DNA of 64,000 nt. It comes from a bacterium (lineage in GTDB: Bacteria; UBA8248). This document shows, one piece after another, positions 1,532 through 13,693 of the stretch. The stretch is taken from positions 448,001 through 512,000 of the forward strand of contig OZ241326.1 in the NCBI GenBank assembly GCA_965199855.1, in the 5' to 3' direction. The notes under the pieces were generated by a model. The model saw only the letters and a list, made by a program, of their open reading frames with translations. It was not told where the DNA came from and did no database searches. The first letter of the stretch is position 1. Each line of letters opens with the position of its first letter. The position numbers and the translations under genes are program-made.

Positions 1532-3493
1532 CTAGCGCGCGGCCCCGGCGGCTTCCGGGGCCAGCGGCTCGGTCTGCGGCGCCCAGTCCGCGCTCTCGCC
1601 GGGAACGCTGTATTCGTAAGGGCCGCGGCGCACCACGGGCAGCGCGGGCCCGAAGTTCCCGTGCGGGGCGGGCGTGGGCGCCACCCATTCGAGCGTGCTG
1701 GCGTTCCACGGGTTCTGCGGCGCGTCGGCGCCCAGCTCGCCCATGCTCTTCTGCAGGTAGCGGTAAATCCACGCCGCCAGCAGGACGAAGACGACGCCCG
1801 CCAGAACCCGCCCGCTCGTGGAGGGCTCGGGCTCCATGAGGCCCTCGATGAGGGACGCCGTCCCCCGGTAGCCGATGAAGCCGACGACCAGGGCGGAGAC
1901 CGCCTGGGTGAGGACGCGGAACCACCTCGCGTTCCACCGGAAGATGGTGGCGAAGAAGTTGAGGACGAAGGGAATCTGCGAAAGTCCGAGCGCCAGCGCC
2001 GAGAGGGTGATGAGCACGTTGATGGGCTGCATCCCCTGGAGGAATTCATACTGCATGGGGTTGTAGATGCGCCGCATGTGGCCGCCCACCCCGAGGATGT
2101 GCATCGGGAAGAACGCCAGGTTGAAGAAGACGAACGTGAGCCAGAAGTGCACCTTGCCGAGCGCCTCGTCCATGGATTTTCCGAACATCTTGGGGAACCA
2201 GTGCGTCACGCCGCCGAAGATGGCGAAGACGCTGCCGCCGAAGATGACGTAGTGGAAGTGCGCCACGATGAAGTAGGTGTCGTGAATGTAGATATCGACC
2301 ACGTTCGAGGCCATGAAGATGCCGCTCAGCCCGCCGACGACGAAAAGGATGACGAAGGCGAGCGCGTTCAGCATGGGGACGGTGAAGCGGATGGAGCCGC
2401 CCCACAGGGTGCCCAGCCAGTTGAAGGTCTTGATGGCCGAGGGGATCGCGATGACGAGCGTCGTCATCATGAACGCGGAGCCGAGAGCGGGGTTCATGCC
2501 CGACTGGAACATGTGGTGGCCCCAGACGATCCAGGAGAGAAAGGCGATGGCGAGCATGGAATACACCATCGCGCGGTAGCCGAAAATCGGCTTTCGGCAG
2601 AAGACGCTCAGCAGCTCCGAGGCGATGCCCATGCCCGGAAGGATGAGGATATAGACCTCCGGGTGGCCGAAATACCAGAACAGGTGCTGCCACAGGAGGG
2701 GTTCTCCCCCCTTGGCGGGGTTGAAGAAGTTGGTCTCGAACACGCGGTCGAAGATCATCATCGCGCCCGCGGAGCCGAGAACCGGAAGCGCCAGCAGGCC
2801 GAGGATGGCGGTGATGAACAGCGACCAGACGACGAGCGGCACCCGGAACCAGGACATGCCCTCCGTGCGCATGTTGATGAGCGTGGTGATGTAGTTGATC
2901 GACCCCATGAGGGAGGAGAGGCTCAGGACGAACAGGCTTATCGCCCAGAGCGTCTGCCCCATGAAGACGCCCGTGTATTCCGGCACGGTGGACAGGGGCG
3001 CGTAGCCCGTCCAGCCGGAGGCGGCGTGTCCTCCCTCGACGAAAAACCCCGCCGACATGATGACGGCGCCGAGCGCCGCGGCCCAGAACGAGAGCATGTT
3101 CAGCGCGGGAAACGCCATGTCGCGCGCCCCGATCATCAGGGGGATGAGAAAGTTTCCGAAGCAACCCACGAGGATCGGCATCACCACGAGAAACACCATG
3201 ATGGTCGCGTGCATGGTGACCGCCATGTTGTAGTAGCTCGGCGTCATGATGCCCTCGGGCAGCCCGTCGCTCTCGTCCGATATCCAGCCGAGACCCCAGA
3301 TGGGGGTTTCCGGCCAGGCGAGCTGCCAGCGGAACATCAGGGCGAGGACGCCGCCGACGACCATCATGACGAGGCCGAGCCAGAGGAACTGGCGGGCGAT
3401 CATCTTGTGATCCAGCGAGAAGACGTAGGTGCTCCAGAACCCACCCTCGTGGTGGGCGTGAGCGGCATGCGCGTCTGCTGTGGTTTCGCTCAT
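1532..3493 (-). CDS. coxA: Cytochrome c oxidase subunit I (A1-type)
   Basis: DHKMI, TMHATIM, YFGHPEVY, WGHHMF, HDTYFIVAHFHY heme/CuB ligand motifs. Confidence 0.97.
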   Translation of the reverse strand: MSETTADAHAAHAHHEGGFWSTYVFSLDHKMIARQFLWLGLVMMVVGGVLALMFRWQLAWPETPIWGLGWISDESDGLPEGIMTPSYYNMAVTMHATIMVFLVVMPILVGCFGNFLIPLMIGARDMAFPALNMLSFWAAALGAVIMSAGFFVEGGHAASGWTGYAPLSTVPEYTGVFMGQTLWAISLFVLSLSSLMGSINYITTLINMRTEGMSWFRVPLVVWSLFITAILGLLALPVLGSAGAMMIFDRVFETNFFNPAKGGEPLLWQHLFWYFGHPEVYILILPGMGIASELLSVFCRKPIFGYRAMVYSMLAIAFLSWIVWGHHMFQSGMNPALGSAFMMTTLVIAIPSAIKTFNWLGTLWGGSIRFTVPMLNALAFVILFVVGGLSGIFMASNVVDIYIHDTYFIVAHFHYVIFGGSVFAIFGGVTHWFPKMFGKSMDEALGKVHFWLTFVFFNLAFFPMHILGVGGHMRRIYNPMQYEFLQGMQPINVLITLSALALGLSQIPFVLNFFATIFRWNARWFRVLTQAVSALVVGFIGYRGTASLIEGLMEPEPSTSGRVLAGVVFVLLAAWIYRYLQKSMGELGADAPQNPWNASTLEWVAPTPAPHGNFGPALPVVRRGPYEYSVPGESADWAPQTEPLAPEAAGAAR

Positions 3494-3609
3494 GGCTTCG
3501 CGGGTCCCTCGTGGCTTCCCGGAGGATGAAGCGGCGTCTCCGGGCGATTCAGGATATGGAGAAGGGCGAGGGCGTCCGCGCCCTCATGCCCTCGATGCGC
3601 GTCCGGCGG

Positions 3610-4278
3610 CTACTTGTCCTTCTTCGCCCAGGCCTCCCTGCGCCATTTCGCGTAGTCCTCCGCCGAGTGGACGACGAGCTCCCCGTTCATGCCGGAATGC
3701 CCGAAGCCGCAGAGCTCGGCGCAGGGTATCTCGTATTTGCCCGTCTTGGTCGGCGTGAACCACAGCGGAATCGTCCGGCCGGGGACCACGTCCTGCTTCA
3801 TGCGGGCGTGGGGGATGAAGAAGCTGTGGATGACGTCCGCGCCCTTGAGCGCGATGAACACCTGCCTGTTGACGGGAACGTTCAGCTGGTTGTCGAGGAC
3901 GAGGTCGTCCTTCGTGCCGAATTTTCCGTCGTCGCCCGGGTAGCGGACGATCCAGTTGAACTGCTTGCCCGTCACCTCCACGCGCACGTGCGGGTTCTGG
4001 GGAATCGCCAGCTTGAGCTTCGCCCAGGAGGTCTGCGTCATCAGGATGAAGACGAGCAGGATGAAGGCGGGAATCACCGTCCAGAGAATCTCCAGCGCGT
4101 TGTTGCCGTGGGCGTATTTCGCCTTCACGCCCGGCCTGGCGCGGTATTTGATGAGGAAATAGACCATGACGGCGGCTACGAGAATGAACGCCACCGCCGT
4201 CAGGTAGTAGGAGATATAGAAGAGAAAGTCGATCTCCTCGCCTTCGATGGAGATGTTCTCAGGCAGCCAGCTCATCAT
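3610..4278 (-). CDS. coxB: Cytochrome c oxidase subunit II
   Basis: Two TM helices, DVIHSF and CAELCGFGHSGM CuA motifs. Confidence 0.96.
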   Translation of the reverse strand: MMSWLPENISIEGEEIDFLFYISYYLTAVAFILVAAVMVYFLIKYRARPGVKAKYAHGNNALEILWTVIPAFILLVFILMTQTSWAKLKLAIPQNPHVRVEVTGKQFNWIVRYPGDDGKFGTKDDLVLDNQLNVPVNRQVFIALKGADVIHSFFIPHARMKQDVVPGRTIPLWFTPTKTGKYEIPCAELCGFGHSGMNGELVVHSAEDYAKWRREAWAKKDK

Positions 4279-4575: not shown

Positions 4576-4652
<77 letters not shown>

Positions 4653-8004: not shown

Positions 8005-8208
8005 TCAGAAGAACCGGATGAGGCCCAGCACGTCCTGGAACAGCACGAGGAAGAAGAACACGGCGGCGATGCAGCCGAAGAGCAGATGCACGTAGTCGGA
8101 CTCTCCGTCCGGATTCTTCGTTCGGATGGCCTTGACGGCGATGAAGCCCGTCGTGAACAGGAAGAGGAAGTTCACGGCCTGCTGGTTTTCGCCCGCGAAC
8201 TCGAACAT
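8005..8208 (-). CDS. Small two-TM membrane protein
   Basis: MFEFAGENQQAVNFLFLF...HLLFGCIAAVFFFLVLFQDVLG; host-like codon usage. Confidence 0.65.
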   Translation of the reverse strand: MFEFAGENQQAVNFLFLFTTGFIAVKAIRTKNPDGESDYVHLLFGCIAAVFFFLVLFQDVLGLIRFF

Positions 8209-8330
8209 GACGGCCCCCGCTTCACAGGTTCCCGCCGCCCCGCCGGGCGGGCGTCCCGCGGATGCTTTCACGGAGGCGAGACGCGCGTCAAGCGGGGGGC
8301 CTTCATGCTTCCCGGTGCGTGATGGAGGGG

Positions 8331-8621
8331 TTATGCGAGTTCGAGAGTCGTGTTGGTGTATGATTCTTCGGGCCACCCCGAATACGTAGTGGAGAGATCG
8401 GCGGAGCCAATGACGCGCCCATGATTCGCGATCATGGATTCACACACGCCGCCGATGGCGTCCCTGATGTTCGCAATGGCGCTTTCTTTGGTGTCGCCCT
8501 CGGATACGCAACCTTCCAGATCCAGACACTCGACGACGTATCCGCCGTCCATCTCGTCCGGCTCCAGAGCAACCTGGAACGGGCCATGGCCCGGTATGCT
8601 GACAATATACCGCTCCATCAT
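8331..8621 (-). CDS. hicB: HicB-family antitoxin with C-terminal tail, no DNA-binding domain
   Basis: DGGYVVECLDLEGCVSEGDTKESAIANIRDAI HicB signature; GGAGG RBS. Confidence 0.85.
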   Translation of the reverse strand: MMERYIVSIPGHGPFQVALEPDEMDGGYVVECLDLEGCVSEGDTKESAIANIRDAIGGVCESMIANHGRVIGSADLSTTYSGWPEESYTNTTLELA

Positions 8622-8639
8622 TTGAAACCTCCCTTTTTG

Positions 8640-8954
8640 CTACTCCGCCCCATTGGTCTTATCTTCGGTTTTCGGCTGAGCGATGGGGCCGAATGAGCTT
8701 TCATACTTTTTGATGTTTTCTCCGAGCGCGTCATGTATGCGCTTCGCATGTGCTACGGATGTGACATATCGCCCAACGAGAGAGGCGCTTCCGGGTTCCG
8801 GCAATGCCTGAAACAAATCAAAAAGGAACTCTTCTCCTCTGGCATGAGTAATTCTAAGCAGGTTGAAATACTGCGCAGGCACGGAAATGTTCAATTCAAC
8901 CGAACCCGCTCCCCCCTGTTTGTTTCCATTCTCTTTTTTATCAGGGTTCACCAT
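8640..8954 (-). CDS. DUF3467-family protein
   Basis: YFNLLRITH..EEFLFD..Q.LP...GRYVTSVAHAKRIHDALGENIKKYESSFGPI matches the DUF3467 pattern as I recall it; GGAGG RBS before ATG 8954. Confidence 0.8.
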   Translation of the reverse strand: MVNPDKKENGNKQGGAGSVELNISVPAQYFNLLRITHARGEEFLFDLFQALPEPGSASLVGRYVTSVAHAKRIHDALGENIKKYESSFGPIAQPKTEDKTNGAE

Positions 8955-8979
8955 GCTTCCTCCATAAATATAGCATATT

Positions 8980-9201
8980 TCATCTATAATCTTCAAATTC
9001 CTGAGCTGTCAATCCAGCGGCTTTTATCAGTTTGCTCAGCGTTCCACGCCTCAGCGCATTGTGCTTGGGGATCGAAAGGTGTTTTTGTTCGCCGAATTTT
9101 TTGTAGATCATATGGCTTCCCGTCTGCCTGTCAAAAACCCATCCGTCTTTTTCAAATGCTTTGGCCGCGTCATTCCCGGAGATTATCGGTGTTCTGGCCA
9201 T
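8980..9201 (-). CDS. hicA: HicA-family mRNA interferase toxin
   Basis: AFEKDGWVFDRQTGSHMIY...SIPKH..LRRGTLSKLIKAAGL, with the catalytic GSH His. Confidence 0.9.
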   Translation of the reverse strand: MARTPIISGNDAAKAFEKDGWVFDRQTGSHMIYKKFGEQKHLSIPKHNALRRGTLSKLIKAAGLTAQEFEDYR

Positions 9202-9289
9202 GTGATGCCCATAACTTTTGCTATCTCCTCCACCATGCCCGGCGACGCTTGGTTGGAAGGGATGATGGTTCACGCTCCCGCACACGCCC

Positions 9290-12200
9290 TCACCCCGCCA
9301 CCTCCTCGTCGGGTCTGCCGGCGGCGAGGGCGCTCATCCAGGCGAGGCACAGGTCGCGCGAGCGGTAGGCGCCGTGGGCCCGCGTCTCCTGCTCCTCGAC
9401 GATGGGGAAGGTGGAATAGACGTAGCGGACGTCCTCTCGGTCGGTCACGCCGTAGAGGCGGAAGAAGACGGCGTCCAGCTTCGCGCGAAGGCGCAGGCGG
9501 CGCTCCTCGTCCCAGGGGAAGGGCGGCTTCGCCTCGCCGGCCTCGTCCGCGTAGCCCATGTCGCGGGCGAAGGGCGCCATGTCGTGGGCGGTGTAGGTGA
9601 GCTCCAGGACGGCGTCCCGGACGATCTCCCCCGCCGTCTTCGGCCCGAAGCGGGCGGCCTCGAAGGCTTCGGGCGGGACGACGGGGAGCTGCTCGACGAT
9701 ATACCAGGTCAAATGCGTCGCCGGCACCTTCTGGCGAGCGACGAAATCGAACGGCGCGGCGTTCAGGTTCGCGACCATCAGGCTCGCCAACGCGGCTCTG
9801 TCTGTCACGGCTTCATCTATCGGGAGGAGCGGGAGCGTATGCCCCGCGCCGCACTTCGGGATGATGGCCGCGATCATGGTTCGCATGTTGGTCGCCGCCG
9901 TAACGTCCTTGAAGGCGACGACCCAGGAATCTTTCCAGTTCCATCTTTGCGAATTTTCCCGCACGTAGTAGCGCGGCTTTGGGAGGCGGTTGAAGTCCCG
10001 CTTGCTCTCGGCCATGAGCGATTCCTGCTGCCCGGTCCGGAAGATGTTGTCGTCCACGACTGTTACGTCGGCGGCGCGGTGATCGAACGCCTGAACCATC
10101 TTGCCCTCGTAGAGCGCGACCCAGTCCGCATCTCCGTTGCGGTAGCGGTTGCCGCCTACGCGCCAGGCGCCCTCCCCGCCGTTCTCCTTGTCCGCTTCCA
10201 GCTCCTCGCGCGCGCGGAACAGGCCGGAATCGTTGGCCATGTGAAACATGGTCGAGTACTTCACCGGCCACGCCTTCGCCTCCTCGCCCGCTGAGCGATC
10301 CACCAGGATCGGCAGGCGCTCGTAAATGGCGGTGGTCAGCTTCATGTCGCGGTAGGTGCGGAAGACGGGCGCGGTGCCCGTGTTGGGATTGACGCGGGCG
10401 AAGTTCTCCGTCCGCAGCATGAAGCGGCGATTGCCGTCGCTGATCTCGGCGAGGTCGTGAAGCCAGACCGCGTATTCGGGCGGCTTCATGACCGGAGACG
10501 GGCCGGCGACGAACGCGCAGAATTTGAACGACGCATGAACGTCGGGGAAGAAGGCTTTTCTGTTCTCGAAATCATAAAACGCCCGCAGCCTGCCTTCCGT
10601 CGCCACGCCCTTGAAGAATTCGGCCGCCGTCATGTCCGAGGCGATGCCCGAGGGCGTGAGCAGACCGGCCACGCCGTCAGGATTGACCAGGGACATGGCG
10701 CGCTCGACGAAGAGCGAATAAAGGTTCACGTCGCCTCCCGATAGCAGGGGGTAGTCGCCGCAGGCTCGCGCCACGCGCGCGGCGCTTGCCGCTCGCTCAC
10801 TCGCCTGGGCGAACTCCCGGGCGAGCGGGTCCTTCGCCTTTTCGAGGTCGGCGATCATCCGCTCGCGATCCGCCTTGTGTCGGGCGCGGGCGATTTCGGG
10901 CCTCCGCGCGGCGAACCATTCCACCTGCTGCAGCTTCATCCTGTCCCAGGGCGGATTGCCGACCACGGCGTCGAAGCCGCCCTCGCGCTCCTCGCCCTCC
11001 CAATCCGACCATACGCCCGGAAACGCCGCCTGCCAGCCGAAGAAGCGCTCTTCTTCCATGAGCTTTCGGGACTTCTCCAGAAGAGCGCGCAGGCGCTTCA
11101 CTCCCCGCCTCGACTTCGGGTCTTCGCCCAAAACGATCCCGACGGGATCGCCGAACGCGCCATGGAAGAAATCCCGAAGCGCGTCCTTGTCCTCCCTTTC
11201 CTTTATGTTCAGCCAGTCGAGGGCGTGGACGAAGGAGAGGAAGGCCGCCAGGGGCTTCGTTCCCTCCTCCACCTCGGCGAAGCGTTCCGCGGACTGGCGC
11301 GCCTCGGTGATTTCGGCGTCCGTGAGCCGCTCGATCTCCCGCATGGGAGCGGCCGCTTCCTTGGCCCGCTCCAGGCGCTCGCGCAGAAAGAGCGCCCCGC
11401 CCCGCTCCTCCGCCCTGTCGATTCCCGCTCTCACCCAAGAGCCGAAGAGGCTGTCCCCGCAGCGCATGTGATGATCCAGAAAGCCCAGCGGCGCGCCCAC
11501 AGTGAAGGTGTGCAGCCAGAGCGAGACCTTGGCGAGCTCCACCGCCATGGGGTTCTTGTCCACTCCATAGACGCAGCGCTTCAGCACCATGCGGCGGACG
11601 ATGCGGCGATCGTCCAGCTGCGCGTCATCGACGCGCCAGCCGCTTTCGGCGGCGTTGGCGCGAATCGTCTTGCGGATTTCCTCGATCCGATCGTTGAGCG
11701 GCGAGGCGTAGCCATCGATGGCGGCTTCCGCCTCGGCCATCGCCTGAATGACCCGGTCGGCGAGATAATCCGAGAGGTTGACGAGAAAATGCCCCGACCC
11801 CATGGCGGGGTCGCAGATTTTCAGCTCCAGGACGCGCTCCGCCGGGTCGAGCGTCTTGAGTTCGGCCATTTGCTCGTCGTCCAGCGGGCGGCGCGCTCCG
11901 AAGCCGGGAATCCGCTCATAAAAGGCGTCCGAGCGCGCCTCGATGAGCGGCCCGACCGTCTCCTGGATGACGAGGCCGACCAGATCGTCCGGCGTGTAGT
12001 AGCTGCCCGATCCCTTCCGGGCGAAGACGTTGGGGCGGATTGCGACGTCATTCCCGACGCGGACGAGCTCCTGCTCGATCAGACGCTCGTAAATCGAGCC
12101 GAGCTGCTGGACGCCGAGGTCCCGGTAGTTGATGTAGCGTCGCCCTTCGGGCGTCTTCTCGAACGAGAGAACGTCGATGACGTTCGCCATGATCTGATCA

Positions 12201-13468
12201 TTGAGCTCAATGCGATCAAGAAGCGGCGTGCGCGCCCTGTCGAAAAGTCCGCCGTTGTAGGGGGGCAGGCCGATGGAGGGGTCGCCCTCATCAATCAGCC
12301 GGCAGAGCTCCCTGAACGATGACCAGTGGCTGGTCGCGCTCGTAGAGAACGAAGCCCTGAAATCCTTGCGTCGTCCGGTCTCGTCTCGCTTGCTCCGCAG
12401 GCTGTAGTCGTCATAGCGGTCGTCCCGGACGGGCAGAAGGTTGCGATCCTCCGCGTAGAGAATGAACAGAAGGCGGTAGAGGACGACGAGGGCGGCCTCG
12501 CGCGCCTCCGCCAGCGGCGCGTCCGGCGCGGCGGCGGCGACGGACGCGGCGAGCTCCGGGAAAACCGGCTTGAATATCTGCTCGAAAATATCGCCGGCGA
12601 CGCGCTCCTCGTAGCGGCGTCCCTCGTCCATGGCGAGCTGATGAAACGAGCGCGCCTCCGATGAAAGCGGCAGGAAGGCTTCGCGCCGGAACATGAGCGC
12701 GAACGCCTTGAGGCAGTGGCGGCGATCGTCTTCGGTGAGGGCGGTCGGCTCCTCGCGGCGGCCGGGGAGGTTCAGGATTCGCGCGAGATCGGCCTCGAAG
12801 AACTGCTCGGAGACCGAGCGCGCCCCGGACCAGTAGAGCCGCCAGCGCGCCCCGTTGGTGAGAATCCCCCAGCGGAGCTTGCCGAGCGTCGTATCGTCCA
12901 GGCGCCTCAGGTAGCGAAGTATCTGCGTGGAGGGGGCGGTCTCCTCCACCGGGCGCCTGTTGATTTTGCTCAGCTCCTCGGAGAAGCCGAGGGACATCTG
13001 GGGGGAGGCCGCGCTCTTCTCGCTTTCCGAGCGGCGATCCAGCGGGCGCTCCCACCGCTTGGATTCCACCAGGGCGAGCCCCAGCCGGTAGCGCGCTGAT
13101 CCTTCGAGAAATTCGTTGGCTTGGGCCTTCTTCTCCTCGTCCTCGAACAGGAGGCCATCGGGCGCGCCCTCTCGGCCGCGGATGGAGAATTTCTGCTGGC
13201 GGAGCCAGGCCGTCCACCCGAGGCGCCCGAGAACGGGCCAGATGAGGTCGTCTTCCGTCTGGCTCTCGTTGGGCGAGAGCTCCCGCGGGAAGCGCTCGAA
13301 GATTCTCCTGAGATCGCGCTCCAGCTCGTGAAGCCAGGAATCATCCAGGGTTTTGTATTCGTCCAGATCGGCGATGCCGGAGGCGAGGAAGTCCCCCGTG
13401 AACAAGGCGCCCTGAAAAACGGCTTCAAGCCTCTCGCGCCGATCTCCCCCGCTCACGCCCCCGCTCAT
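9290..13468 (-). CDS. Fused type IIG/Eco57I-like restriction endonuclease-N6-adenine methyltransferase
   Basis: N-terminal PD..ExK (APDGLLF...VESKRW) and ILTNGARWRLY; YNGGLF, LGSIYE, GSYYTP, DPAMGSGHFL (motif I), VVGNPPW (motif IV); C-terminal TRD-like region; start uncertain (ORF open to 13612). Confidence 0.9.
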   Translation of the reverse strand: MSGGVSGGDRRERLEAVFQGALFTGDFLASGIADLDEYKTLDDSWLHELERDLRRIFERFPRELSPNESQTEDDLIWPVLGRLGWTAWLRQQKFSIRGREGAPDGLLFEDEEKKAQANEFLEGSARYRLGLALVESKRWERPLDRRSESEKSAASPQMSLGFSEELSKINRRPVEETAPSTQILRYLRRLDDTTLGKLRWGILTNGARWRLYWSGARSVSEQFFEADLARILNLPGRREEPTALTEDDRRHCLKAFALMFRREAFLPLSSEARSFHQLAMDEGRRYEERVAGDIFEQIFKPVFPELAASVAAAAPDAPLAEAREAALVVLYRLLFILYAEDRNLLPVRDDRYDDYSLRSKRDETGRRKDFRASFSTSATSHWSSFRELCRLIDEGDPSIGLPPYNGGLFDRARTPLLDRIELNDQIMANVIDVLSFEKTPEGRRYINYRDLGVQQLGSIYERLIEQELVRVGNDVAIRPNVFARKGSGSYYTPDDLVGLVIQETVGPLIEARSDAFYERIPGFGARRPLDDEQMAELKTLDPAERVLELKICDPAMGSGHFLVNLSDYLADRVIQAMAEAEAAIDGYASPLNDRIEEIRKTIRANAAESGWRVDDAQLDDRRIVRRMVLKRCVYGVDKNPMAVELAKVSLWLHTFTVGAPLGFLDHHMRCGDSLFGSWVRAGIDRAEERGGALFLRERLERAKEAAAPMREIERLTDAEITEARQSAERFAEVEEGTKPLAAFLSFVHALDWLNIKEREDKDALRDFFHGAFGDPVGIVLGEDPKSRRGVKRLRALLEKSRKLMEEERFFGWQAAFPGVWSDWEGEEREGGFDAVVGNPPWDRMKLQQVEWFAARRPEIARARHKADRERMIADLEKAKDPLAREFAQASERAASAARVARACGDYPLLSGGDVNLYSLFVERAMSLVNPDGVAGLLTPSGIASDMTAAEFFKGVATEGRLRAFYDFENRKAFFPDVHASFKFCAFVAGPSPVMKPPEYAVWLHDLAEISDGNRRFMLRTENFARVNPNTGTAPVFRTYRDMKLTTAIYERLPILVDRSAGEEAKAWPVKYSTMFHMANDSGLFRAREELEADKENGGEGAWRVGGNRYRNGDADWVALYEGKMVQAFDHRAADVTVVDDNIFRTGQQESLMAESKRDFNRLPKPRYYVRENSQRWNWKDSWVVAFKDVTAATNMRTMIAAIIPKCGAGHTLPLLPIDEAVTDRAALASLMVANLNAAPFDFVARQKVPATHLTWYIVEQLPVVPPEAFEAARFGPKTAGEIVRDAVLELTYTAHDMAPFARDMGYADEAGEAKPPFPWDEERRLRLRAKLDAVFFRLYGVTDREDVRYVYSTFPIVEEQETRAHGAYRSRDLCLAWMSALAAGRPDEEVAG

Positions 13469-13693
13469 GTCGCCCGGCTCCTCCGCCCCGTCCGAAAAAC
13501 TCTCTTTCTCCACGCCCAGCATACCCCGGAAACGCTTCTGGAAACCGTCGTTTTTGCGCTTGCGCCCGGGCTTTTTACGCGATTTCTTCAAAGAAGGCGC
13601 ATTTGCCCGCACTTGCGGGCCGCTCGGCGTCCCCGCCTCCTCGTATGCTTCACAGGCTCCGCGGGCGGGGCGGGCGCGAGCCAGGCGATTCCG

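Follow-up and report, generated by a model that had tools for sequence, protein, structure and literature searches.

The 64,000-nucleotide stretch of DNA analyzed here (positions 448,001 to 512,000 of contig OZ241326.1, GenBank assembly GCA_965199855.1, from a bacterium of the lineage UBA8248; hereafter, the window) carries on its minus strand a module of three small genes, namely hicA (8980–9201), a gene of the DUF3467 family (8640–8954), and hicB (8331–8621). The 73-residue HicA matches the Pfam family HicA_toxin (PF07927; E 2.1e-16, 60.2 bits against a cut-off of 27), the 104-residue DUF3467 protein matches PF11950 (E 4.5e-11, 43.1 bits, cut-off 25), and HicB, a one-domain protein of 96 residues, matches HicB_lk_antitox (PF15919; E 1.3e-7, 32.2 bits, cut-off 27); no model in NCBIfam or PADLOC matches any of the three products. 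The genes are co-oriented and closely packed, with gaps of 25 nt between hicA and the DUF3467 gene and of 18 nt between the DUF3467 gene and hicB. As read in the sequence, a GGAGG ribosome-binding site (8959–8963, minus strand) lies 4 nt 5' of the DUF3467 ATG at 8954, and a GGGAGG site (8628–8633, minus strand) lies 6 nt 5' of the hicB ATG at 8621. All three genes are low in GC (0.47, 0.49, and 0.57 for hicA, the DUF3467 gene, and hicB) relative to the window (0.67) and to the restriction-modification (R-M) gene upstream of them (0.66). An earlier note on this DNA had described such a layout downstream of an R-M gene, with a DUF3467 gene that has its own GGAGG, and had proposed a toxin-antitoxin-chaperone (TAC)-like module with a third protein other than SecB; the open reading frames (ORFs), the Pfam matches, and the GC values confirm the layout.

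The three genes constitute a single, tightly packed operon in which translation is probably coupled. There is also a promoter-like site inside hicA (9107–9134, minus strand; TTGACA, a 16-nt spacer, and TATGAT, with 11 of 12 matches, by consensus match only), and 3 promoter-like sites were found by consensus compared with 0.7 ± 0.9 in shuffled sequences. The site inside hicA, if real, would drive expression of DUF3467 and hicB without the full-length HicA toxin. The genome from which the window comes (3.04 Mb, one contig) contains a single DUF3467 gene and three HicA matches, and a SecB gene is found nowhere in it.

The three proteins

The HicA of the window has an intact Gly-Ser-His motif, which is the catalytic motif of HicA, and G28 and H30 are invariant in the alignment of its homologs. 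It has an isoelectric point (pI) of 9.8 and matches the structure 1whz in the PDB by sequence (E 0.005). We infer that this protein is an RNase toxin of a small RNase family.

The DUF3467 protein keeps the residues that are nearly invariant in its family (N31, H37, E42, R62, K71, N80, Y84, E85, and G89), and has a pI of 6.3. Its AlphaFold2 (AF2) model, with a predicted local distance difference test score (pLDDT) of 87, consists of three strands (32–38, 42–50, and 57–66) followed by a helix (67–88), and these are preceded by a disordered N-terminus rich in Lys, Glu, Asn, and Gly. Foldseek found nothing in the PDB at E ≤ 0.001, and neither the sequence nor a 108-sequence profile matched any solved structure. 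In a wide structural search the best matches were weak, namely COMM domains (Z 5.4–5.8), Pur-alpha (Z 5.0), and PC4 (Z 4.2), the top one at Z 5.8 with a root-mean-square deviation (rmsd) of 3.1 Å over 58 residues, and Z-scores below 8 in this search may reflect only a common arrangement of secondary structure. The ESM Atlas returned unnamed clusters only, with a best score of 0.82. Because the SecB profile PF02556 has no match in DUF3467 at E ≤ 0.1 and hhalign gives a probability of 0.08% to its alignment with SecB (represented by 11 genomic SecB genes), DUF3467 is not a relative of SecB by any of these sequence tests, which agrees with the description of the third protein as non-SecB in the earlier note. 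SecB chains are likewise not among the 50 matches listed in the wide structural search, a result with which a SecB-like fold is nevertheless compatible.

A search for longer homologs of DUF3467 found none, and no fused forms occur among 24 proteins scanned with Pfam, which comprised the longer and trio-clade homologs obtained in the search of representatives and left out P0007 (5298 aa); P0006 carries SPOR repeats and probably matches falsely because of its composition. Tandem and two-domain forms of DUF3467 do occur (P0014, P0015, P0080, and L157), and at the last of these, in genome G357 (1968–3241), a two-domain protein of 295 residues is encoded next to a single-domain one of 126 residues. 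Such forms hint at a domain that works as a dimer.

HicB is an acidic protein (pI 4.1), and its Pfam match covers profile positions 1–61 of 123 over residues 15–76. Its AF2 model (pLDDT 77.5) contains strands at 3–9, 13–22, 27–32, and 39–42 and a helix at 45–67, and every one of its best matches in Foldseek is a HicB structure (6g26, 6g1c, 6hpb, 6u0i, and 4p78; probability 1.00), with a query-normalized TM score of 0.46–0.54 and an rmsd of 1.1–4.9 Å over 56–73 columns; the best E is 8e-3 and none reaches 0.001. In agreement with the earlier note, this HicB does not contain a helix-turn-helix (HTH) or ribbon-helix-helix (RHH) DNA-binding domain, as there is no second Pfam domain and the sequence continues for only 52 residues beyond the conserved Thr that opens the helix, compared with 107–111 in its long relatives.

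That note had further claimed that HicB ends in a low-structure, aromatic-containing tail. Residues 77–96 indeed have a pLDDT below 50, and the C-terminal segment (residues 69–96, encoded at 8334–8417 on the minus strand) contains the conserved stretch Thr-Tyr-Ser-Gly-Trp-Pro-Glu-Glu-x-Tyr, which is kept in six of seven close HicB homologs; compared pairwise (21 pairs), these seven are on average 58% identical in the tail and 76% identical in the core. We measured tails as the residues that follow the conserved Thr at the helix start. By this measure nine short HicBs from two-gene loci have 37–42 residues and the HicBs of the six trios described below have 47–65, an excess of 5–23 residues after the helix, whereas the six long relatives have ~70 extra residues that make up an additional C-terminal domain. 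The short two-gene HicBs also end in a small-hydrophobic C-terminus that resembles the end of the window HicB. Since they have 37–42 residues where the window HicB has 52, only ~10 residues of its tail are truly extra, and the tail of the trio HicBs is best read as the end that one-domain HicBs ordinarily have, into which 5–23 residues with aromatic positions are inserted. In the window HicB the insertion corresponds to the Thr-Tyr-Ser-Gly-Trp-Pro-Glu-Glu-x-Tyr stretch. The tail of the earlier note is thus only in part an addition. All trio HicBs carry in addition an extra N-terminal stretch, which is predicted as a strand, in the AF2 model, for the window HicB only.

Recurrence of the trio and distribution of DUF3467

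PF11950 was found in 8 of 51 genomes of the phylum to which the window belongs, and in six of these eight (G000, G033, G037, G013, G011, and G010, from three genera) the gene stands in the order HicA-DUF3467-HicB. Recurrence of this order in other genomes, on which the earlier note had made its proposal depend, is therefore observed. In G033, a public record of a metagenome-assembled genome (L005), an R-M gene, hicA, DUF3467, and hicB follow one another as they do in the window, and in G037, which belongs to another genus, Pfam gives HicA, DUF3467, and HicB in the same order. Pfam supports the trio in G000 as well as in these two genomes; in G013, G011, and G010 (L008–L010), which belong to a third genus, g2, its support is weak (HicA E 0.051, HicB E 0.0036), the flanking genes are matched by locally built hidden Markov models (HMMs), and hhalign aligns the two types of HicA with a probability of 92.7% (E 4e-7). 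At three of the loci (L006, L008, and L010) the trio genes overlap.

Identity between trio genomes is 40–68% for DUF3467, 31–62% for HicB, and 19–65% for HicA; in comparisons between genera, DUF3467 is better conserved and evolves more slowly than the other two. Given these identities, the order of the genes has evidently been kept while all three proteins diverged deeply. A seventh genome, G021, contains a decayed module (L170, G021:C1:417072-421176, at 1698–2111 on the minus strand) in which an intact hicB of 96 codons is preceded by just the last 33 codons of DUF3467, and there is no hicA; the genus of the window thus has two intact copies of the trio and one remnant in 23 genomes. In a FastTree phylogeny of 197 DUF3467 leaves, rooted at the midpoint, the six trio proteins group with ten metagenomic proteins in a single 16-member clade (support 0.69) that includes no DUF3467 from other phyla. 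This tree omits duplicates (L002 and L007), proteins longer than 180 residues, and three sequences that had under 50 aligned residues.

When 401 genomes (350 from other phyla) were searched with a profile, DUF3467 was found in 135, usually as a single copy and in a few genomes as two to four. Of 117 small ORFs that adjoin DUF3467 genes, 116 belong to loci outside the phylum, and outside the phylum Pfam detected among them one HEPN protein and no other toxin-antitoxin family. At the 30 best loci, the 71 larger neighbors are housekeeping genes of various kinds. Some DUF3467 genes adjoin smpB (L108 and L110), RNase PH, truA, or metG. At two loci in other phyla, DUF3467 lies directly upstream of a protein that requires handling before it is exported. 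At L150 (G077, 1968–3644) this is a 343-residue protein whose C-terminal domain is a TNT toxin domain, with a 101-residue ORF after it, and at L169 (G201, 1959–4244) it is an exoprotein with a TPS domain; it is possible that these are adaptor-client pairs, which would fit an adaptor or holdase role without proving it. Among plasmid records, two from Bacteroidales have DUF3467 upstream of rpsL; one of them, Bacteroides finegoldii NZ_OY725917.1, has an annotated DUF3467 gene (L016, 4935–5243) immediately upstream of rpsL-rpsG-fusA, and this record is labeled a plasmid yet carries ribosomal-protein operons. Viral contigs contain no close relatives of DUF3467, phage records contain one weak, unannotated match, and a scan of metagenomes with the DUF3467 alignment returned nothing.

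Upstream of hicA, its end 88 nt away, is the R-M gene (9290–13612, minus strand), which encodes a Type IIG R-M or DrmMI-like methyltransferase-nuclease of 1440 residues (Eco57I Pfam match, E 2.8e-21; PADLOC models DrmMI, 3.5e-86, and Type IIG REase-MTase, 9.4e-65), and no other DISARM genes are found near it. A close homolog precedes the trio in G033 too, and none is seen beside the trio at L008–L010. We considered the R-M gene as a member of the module and rejected it because it is present in only two of the six trio genomes, both in genus g1; it is a neighbor that probably does not belong to the unit. The farther flanks consist of housekeeping genes that encode a TPR protein, ThyX, and an AcrB-type pump. 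An ORF at 8005–8376 (minus strand) overlaps the 3' end of hicB; its C-terminal part resembles a small two-helix membrane protein whose start is probably an internal Met near 8211, and it has no Pfam match. The sole tRNA gene of the window, for tRNA-Arg (ACG), lies at 4576–4652, ~3.7 kb from the module. In the genus-g2 locus L009 the 3' part of the HicA-like gene looks frameshifted. For the interval 8250–9400 of the window, at least half of the sampled words are present in sequencing runs labeled as sponge or marine metagenomes (X4–X11, studies P3–P5), and there are no RNA runs among the runs listed for this interval.

Possible roles of DUF3467

Several lines of evidence, namely the conserved order, the tight coupling, the codivergence of the three proteins, and the single DUF3467 clade, lead us to conclude that DUF3467 is likely a functional part of a HicAB-type tripartite module. 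The leading reading of what it does there is a TAC-like mechanism in which DUF3467 serves as a chaperone of HicB. This is the weakest step of the argument, and we put it forward tentatively, as a proposal somewhat more apt to be wrong than right. HicA would act as an RNase toxin, and the acidic one-domain HicB would neutralize it through its N-terminal domain. DUF3467 would act on HicB as a dedicated holdase or adaptor by docking on two features peculiar to the trio HicBs, an additional strand at the N-terminus and the aromatic insertion that precedes the C-terminal end. The stability and activity of HicB would then depend on the presence of DUF3467, and HicA would be released once DUF3467 was lost or was titrated away, as a phage protein might do. 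Of the TAC-like module with a non-SecB third protein that the earlier note envisaged, the recurring order, the nature of the third protein, and the longer HicBs without a DNA-binding domain stand, whereas a general link between DUF3467 and toxin-antitoxin genes does not and the HicB tail is partly ordinary.

A number of observations weigh against a chaperone of HicB. Outside the phylum, none of 136 DUF3467 loci (every such locus found in the 401-genome search, from ~127 genomes) has a HicA or HicB neighbor by local HMMs. The link with HicAB is therefore lineage-specific, and this result, together with the single HEPN protein among the small neighbors, indicates that the general role of the family is not related to toxin-antitoxin systems. 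DUF3467 and SecB do not replace one another, as DUF3467 occurs in 5 of 14 SecB-positive and 130 of 387 SecB-negative genomes. DUF3467 does not detectably resemble SecB or any known chaperone. No result obtained here shows a contact between DUF3467 and HicB, and cofolding of two DUF3467 chains with full-length HicB scored 0.02 relative to a mark of 0.32 and gave no answer either way. Part of the HicB tail is the normal end of short HicBs, and 19 metagenome loci with HicB relatives (L017–L035), nine of them with an adjacent HicA, contain no DUF3467. Because short one-domain HicBs thus occur in two-gene loci without a third gene, they have no evident need of a helper, and the missing DNA-binding domain is not unusual for HicB. 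The order of the trio, in which the third gene stands between toxin and antitoxin, differs from the toxin-antitoxin-chaperone order of the Mycobacterium tuberculosis system. Finally, the genus-g2 branch may be something other than a toxin system, since its HicA-like proteins lack the histidine of the Gly-Ser-His motif and have Arg-Gly-Lys or Arg-Gly-Arg instead.

DUF3467 could also act on the toxin side. By binding HicA or the RNA substrate of HicA, it could serve as a further inhibitor, determine specificity, or activate the toxin, and HicB would need no help. Its gene directly follows hicA, it is more conserved between genera than either HicA or HicB, its weak fold matches include the single-strand nucleic-acid binders Pur-alpha and PC4, and some housekeeping members of the family lie next to smpB, RNase PH, truA, or metG or, in Bacteroides, upstream of rpsL. 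However, the structural Z-scores are within the range of a common arrangement, the 136 loci are heterogeneous and offer no consistent RNA-related partner, and the slightly acidic pI of DUF3467 would be unusual in an RNA binder, so that we regard a toxin-side role as unlikely. The loss of the motif histidine at L008–L010, where the trio is nonetheless kept, suggests a further possibility, which is that the three proteins form an RNA-handling or regulatory complex with DUF3467 at its core and are no longer, or never were, a poison-antidote pair. That DUF3467 evolves slowest and that Pfam barely sees the flanking genes at these loci would fit such a complex. The window HicA, though, keeps its Gly-Ser-His motif, and the patchy accessory distribution of the trio within the genus, its low GC, and a remnant in which the antitoxin gene alone is intact are all typical of toxin-antitoxin loci; we find a complex of this kind quite unlikely.

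Another role to be considered for DUF3467 is transcriptional autoregulation, a task that HicB, having no HTH or RHH domain, cannot carry out. The long two-gene relatives of HicB carry ~70 more C-terminal residues, and PC4 and Pur-alpha, to which DUF3467 has its weak fold matches, bind DNA. A regulatory role is nevertheless very unlikely in our view, given that the nine short HicBs from two-gene loci, which have no third gene beside them, are likewise without a DNA-binding domain, that DUF3467 has a pI near neutral and no known DNA-binding motif, and that in 135 of 401 genomes it is a single-copy gene in varied housekeeping contexts. Alternatively, DUF3467 could be a passenger, an unrelated small gene that landed once inside hicAB and was inherited along with it without a functional tie. 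An association confined to one lineage and to one DUF3467 clade is what a single insertion would give. Yet order and tight spacing persist across three genera at identities down to 19–47%, the conserved residues of the family are kept, and a neutral insert between toxin and antitoxin ought either to disappear or to break their coupling, and we give a passenger little credence.

If DUF3467 does chaperone HicB, a broader hypothesis can be formulated, although we consider it doubtful. DUF3467 would represent a previously unrecognized class of client-holding adaptor that was recruited here as a SecB-independent chaperone of HicAB, and the module would be convergent with TAC systems and possibly phage-sensing. 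A client-holding activity would, if true, explain why DUF3467 is present in about one-third of the bacterial genomes sampled and why it occurs beside exported toxins. Tripartite toxin-antitoxin-chaperone systems have so far been defined by SecB-like chaperones, and a conserved HicAB module whose third protein is unrelated to these would show that such a three-part logic has arisen repeatedly in evolution. The DUF3467 family is widespread and has no known function and essentially no literature; its toxin-antitoxin setting offers a simple growth-based genetic assay for its binding and function.

Comparison with known systems

The earlier note knew of no characterized example of this arrangement, and this agrees with the full-text literature, in which DUF3467 appears only in unrelated work, PF11950 is absent, and the arrangement is not described under the topic of three-component HicAB systems. 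In the passages covered here, Makarova et al. (2009) do not mention a HicA-DUF3467-HicB arrangement and Kamneva et al. (2015) do not mention DUF3467.

The trio has the same families of HicA and HicB N-domain as two-gene hicAB loci, which include those among L017–L035 and a second pair in the genome of the window (L003), and the nine relatives that lack a DNA-binding domain share its small-hydrophobic C-terminus. The two-gene loci differ in that no gene stands between or beside the pair and in that their HicBs have neither the extra N-terminal strand nor the aromatic insertion. Likewise, the trio DUF3467 has the same domain and conserved residues as housekeeping PF11950 proteins, whereas the trio proteins form a separate clade and the housekeeping loci have varied neighbors without toxin-antitoxin genes. 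The type II operons of omega-epsilon-zeta and paaR-paaA-parE likewise include a small third gene; in these three-gene toxin-antitoxin systems the separate regulator is a recognizable DNA-binding repressor, but DUF3467 has no recognizable DNA-binding domain.

The comparison with TAC systems draws on passages of two sources, in which the TAC background cited in the earlier note holds good. The type II pairs known in TAC systems belong to the HigBA, MqsRA, and HicAB families. According to Bordes et al. (2016; PMC5105189), TAC systems built on HicAB pairs exist, among them the HicAB-type Mmet-TAC of Methylomonas methanica, with a SecB-like chaperone; the preprint of Mets et al. (bioRxiv 10.1101/2024.02.24.581848) treats HigBAC and CmdTAC of Escherichia coli as TAC systems. 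The chaperone-addiction (ChAD) segments are described in these sources as variable in length and sequence, with aromatic residues that are needed. The trio resembles these systems in being a three-gene operon based on a type II pair of a TAC-forming family, in having an antitoxin with a poorly structured, aromatic-containing C-terminal segment, and in having a third gene whose product is small and cytoplasmic. It differs from them in that the third protein is DUF3467 and not SecB-like, in that its gene is placed between those of toxin and antitoxin, in that the antitoxin is without a DNA-binding domain, and in that the HicB extension comprises 5–23 residues compared with the 30–41 residues of the ChAD segments swapped in the relevant part of PMC5105189. 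We propose that the HicA-DUF3467-HicB arrangement, which is confined at present to one lineage and its metagenomic relatives, adds a previously undescribed form to the known tripartite toxin-antitoxin modules.

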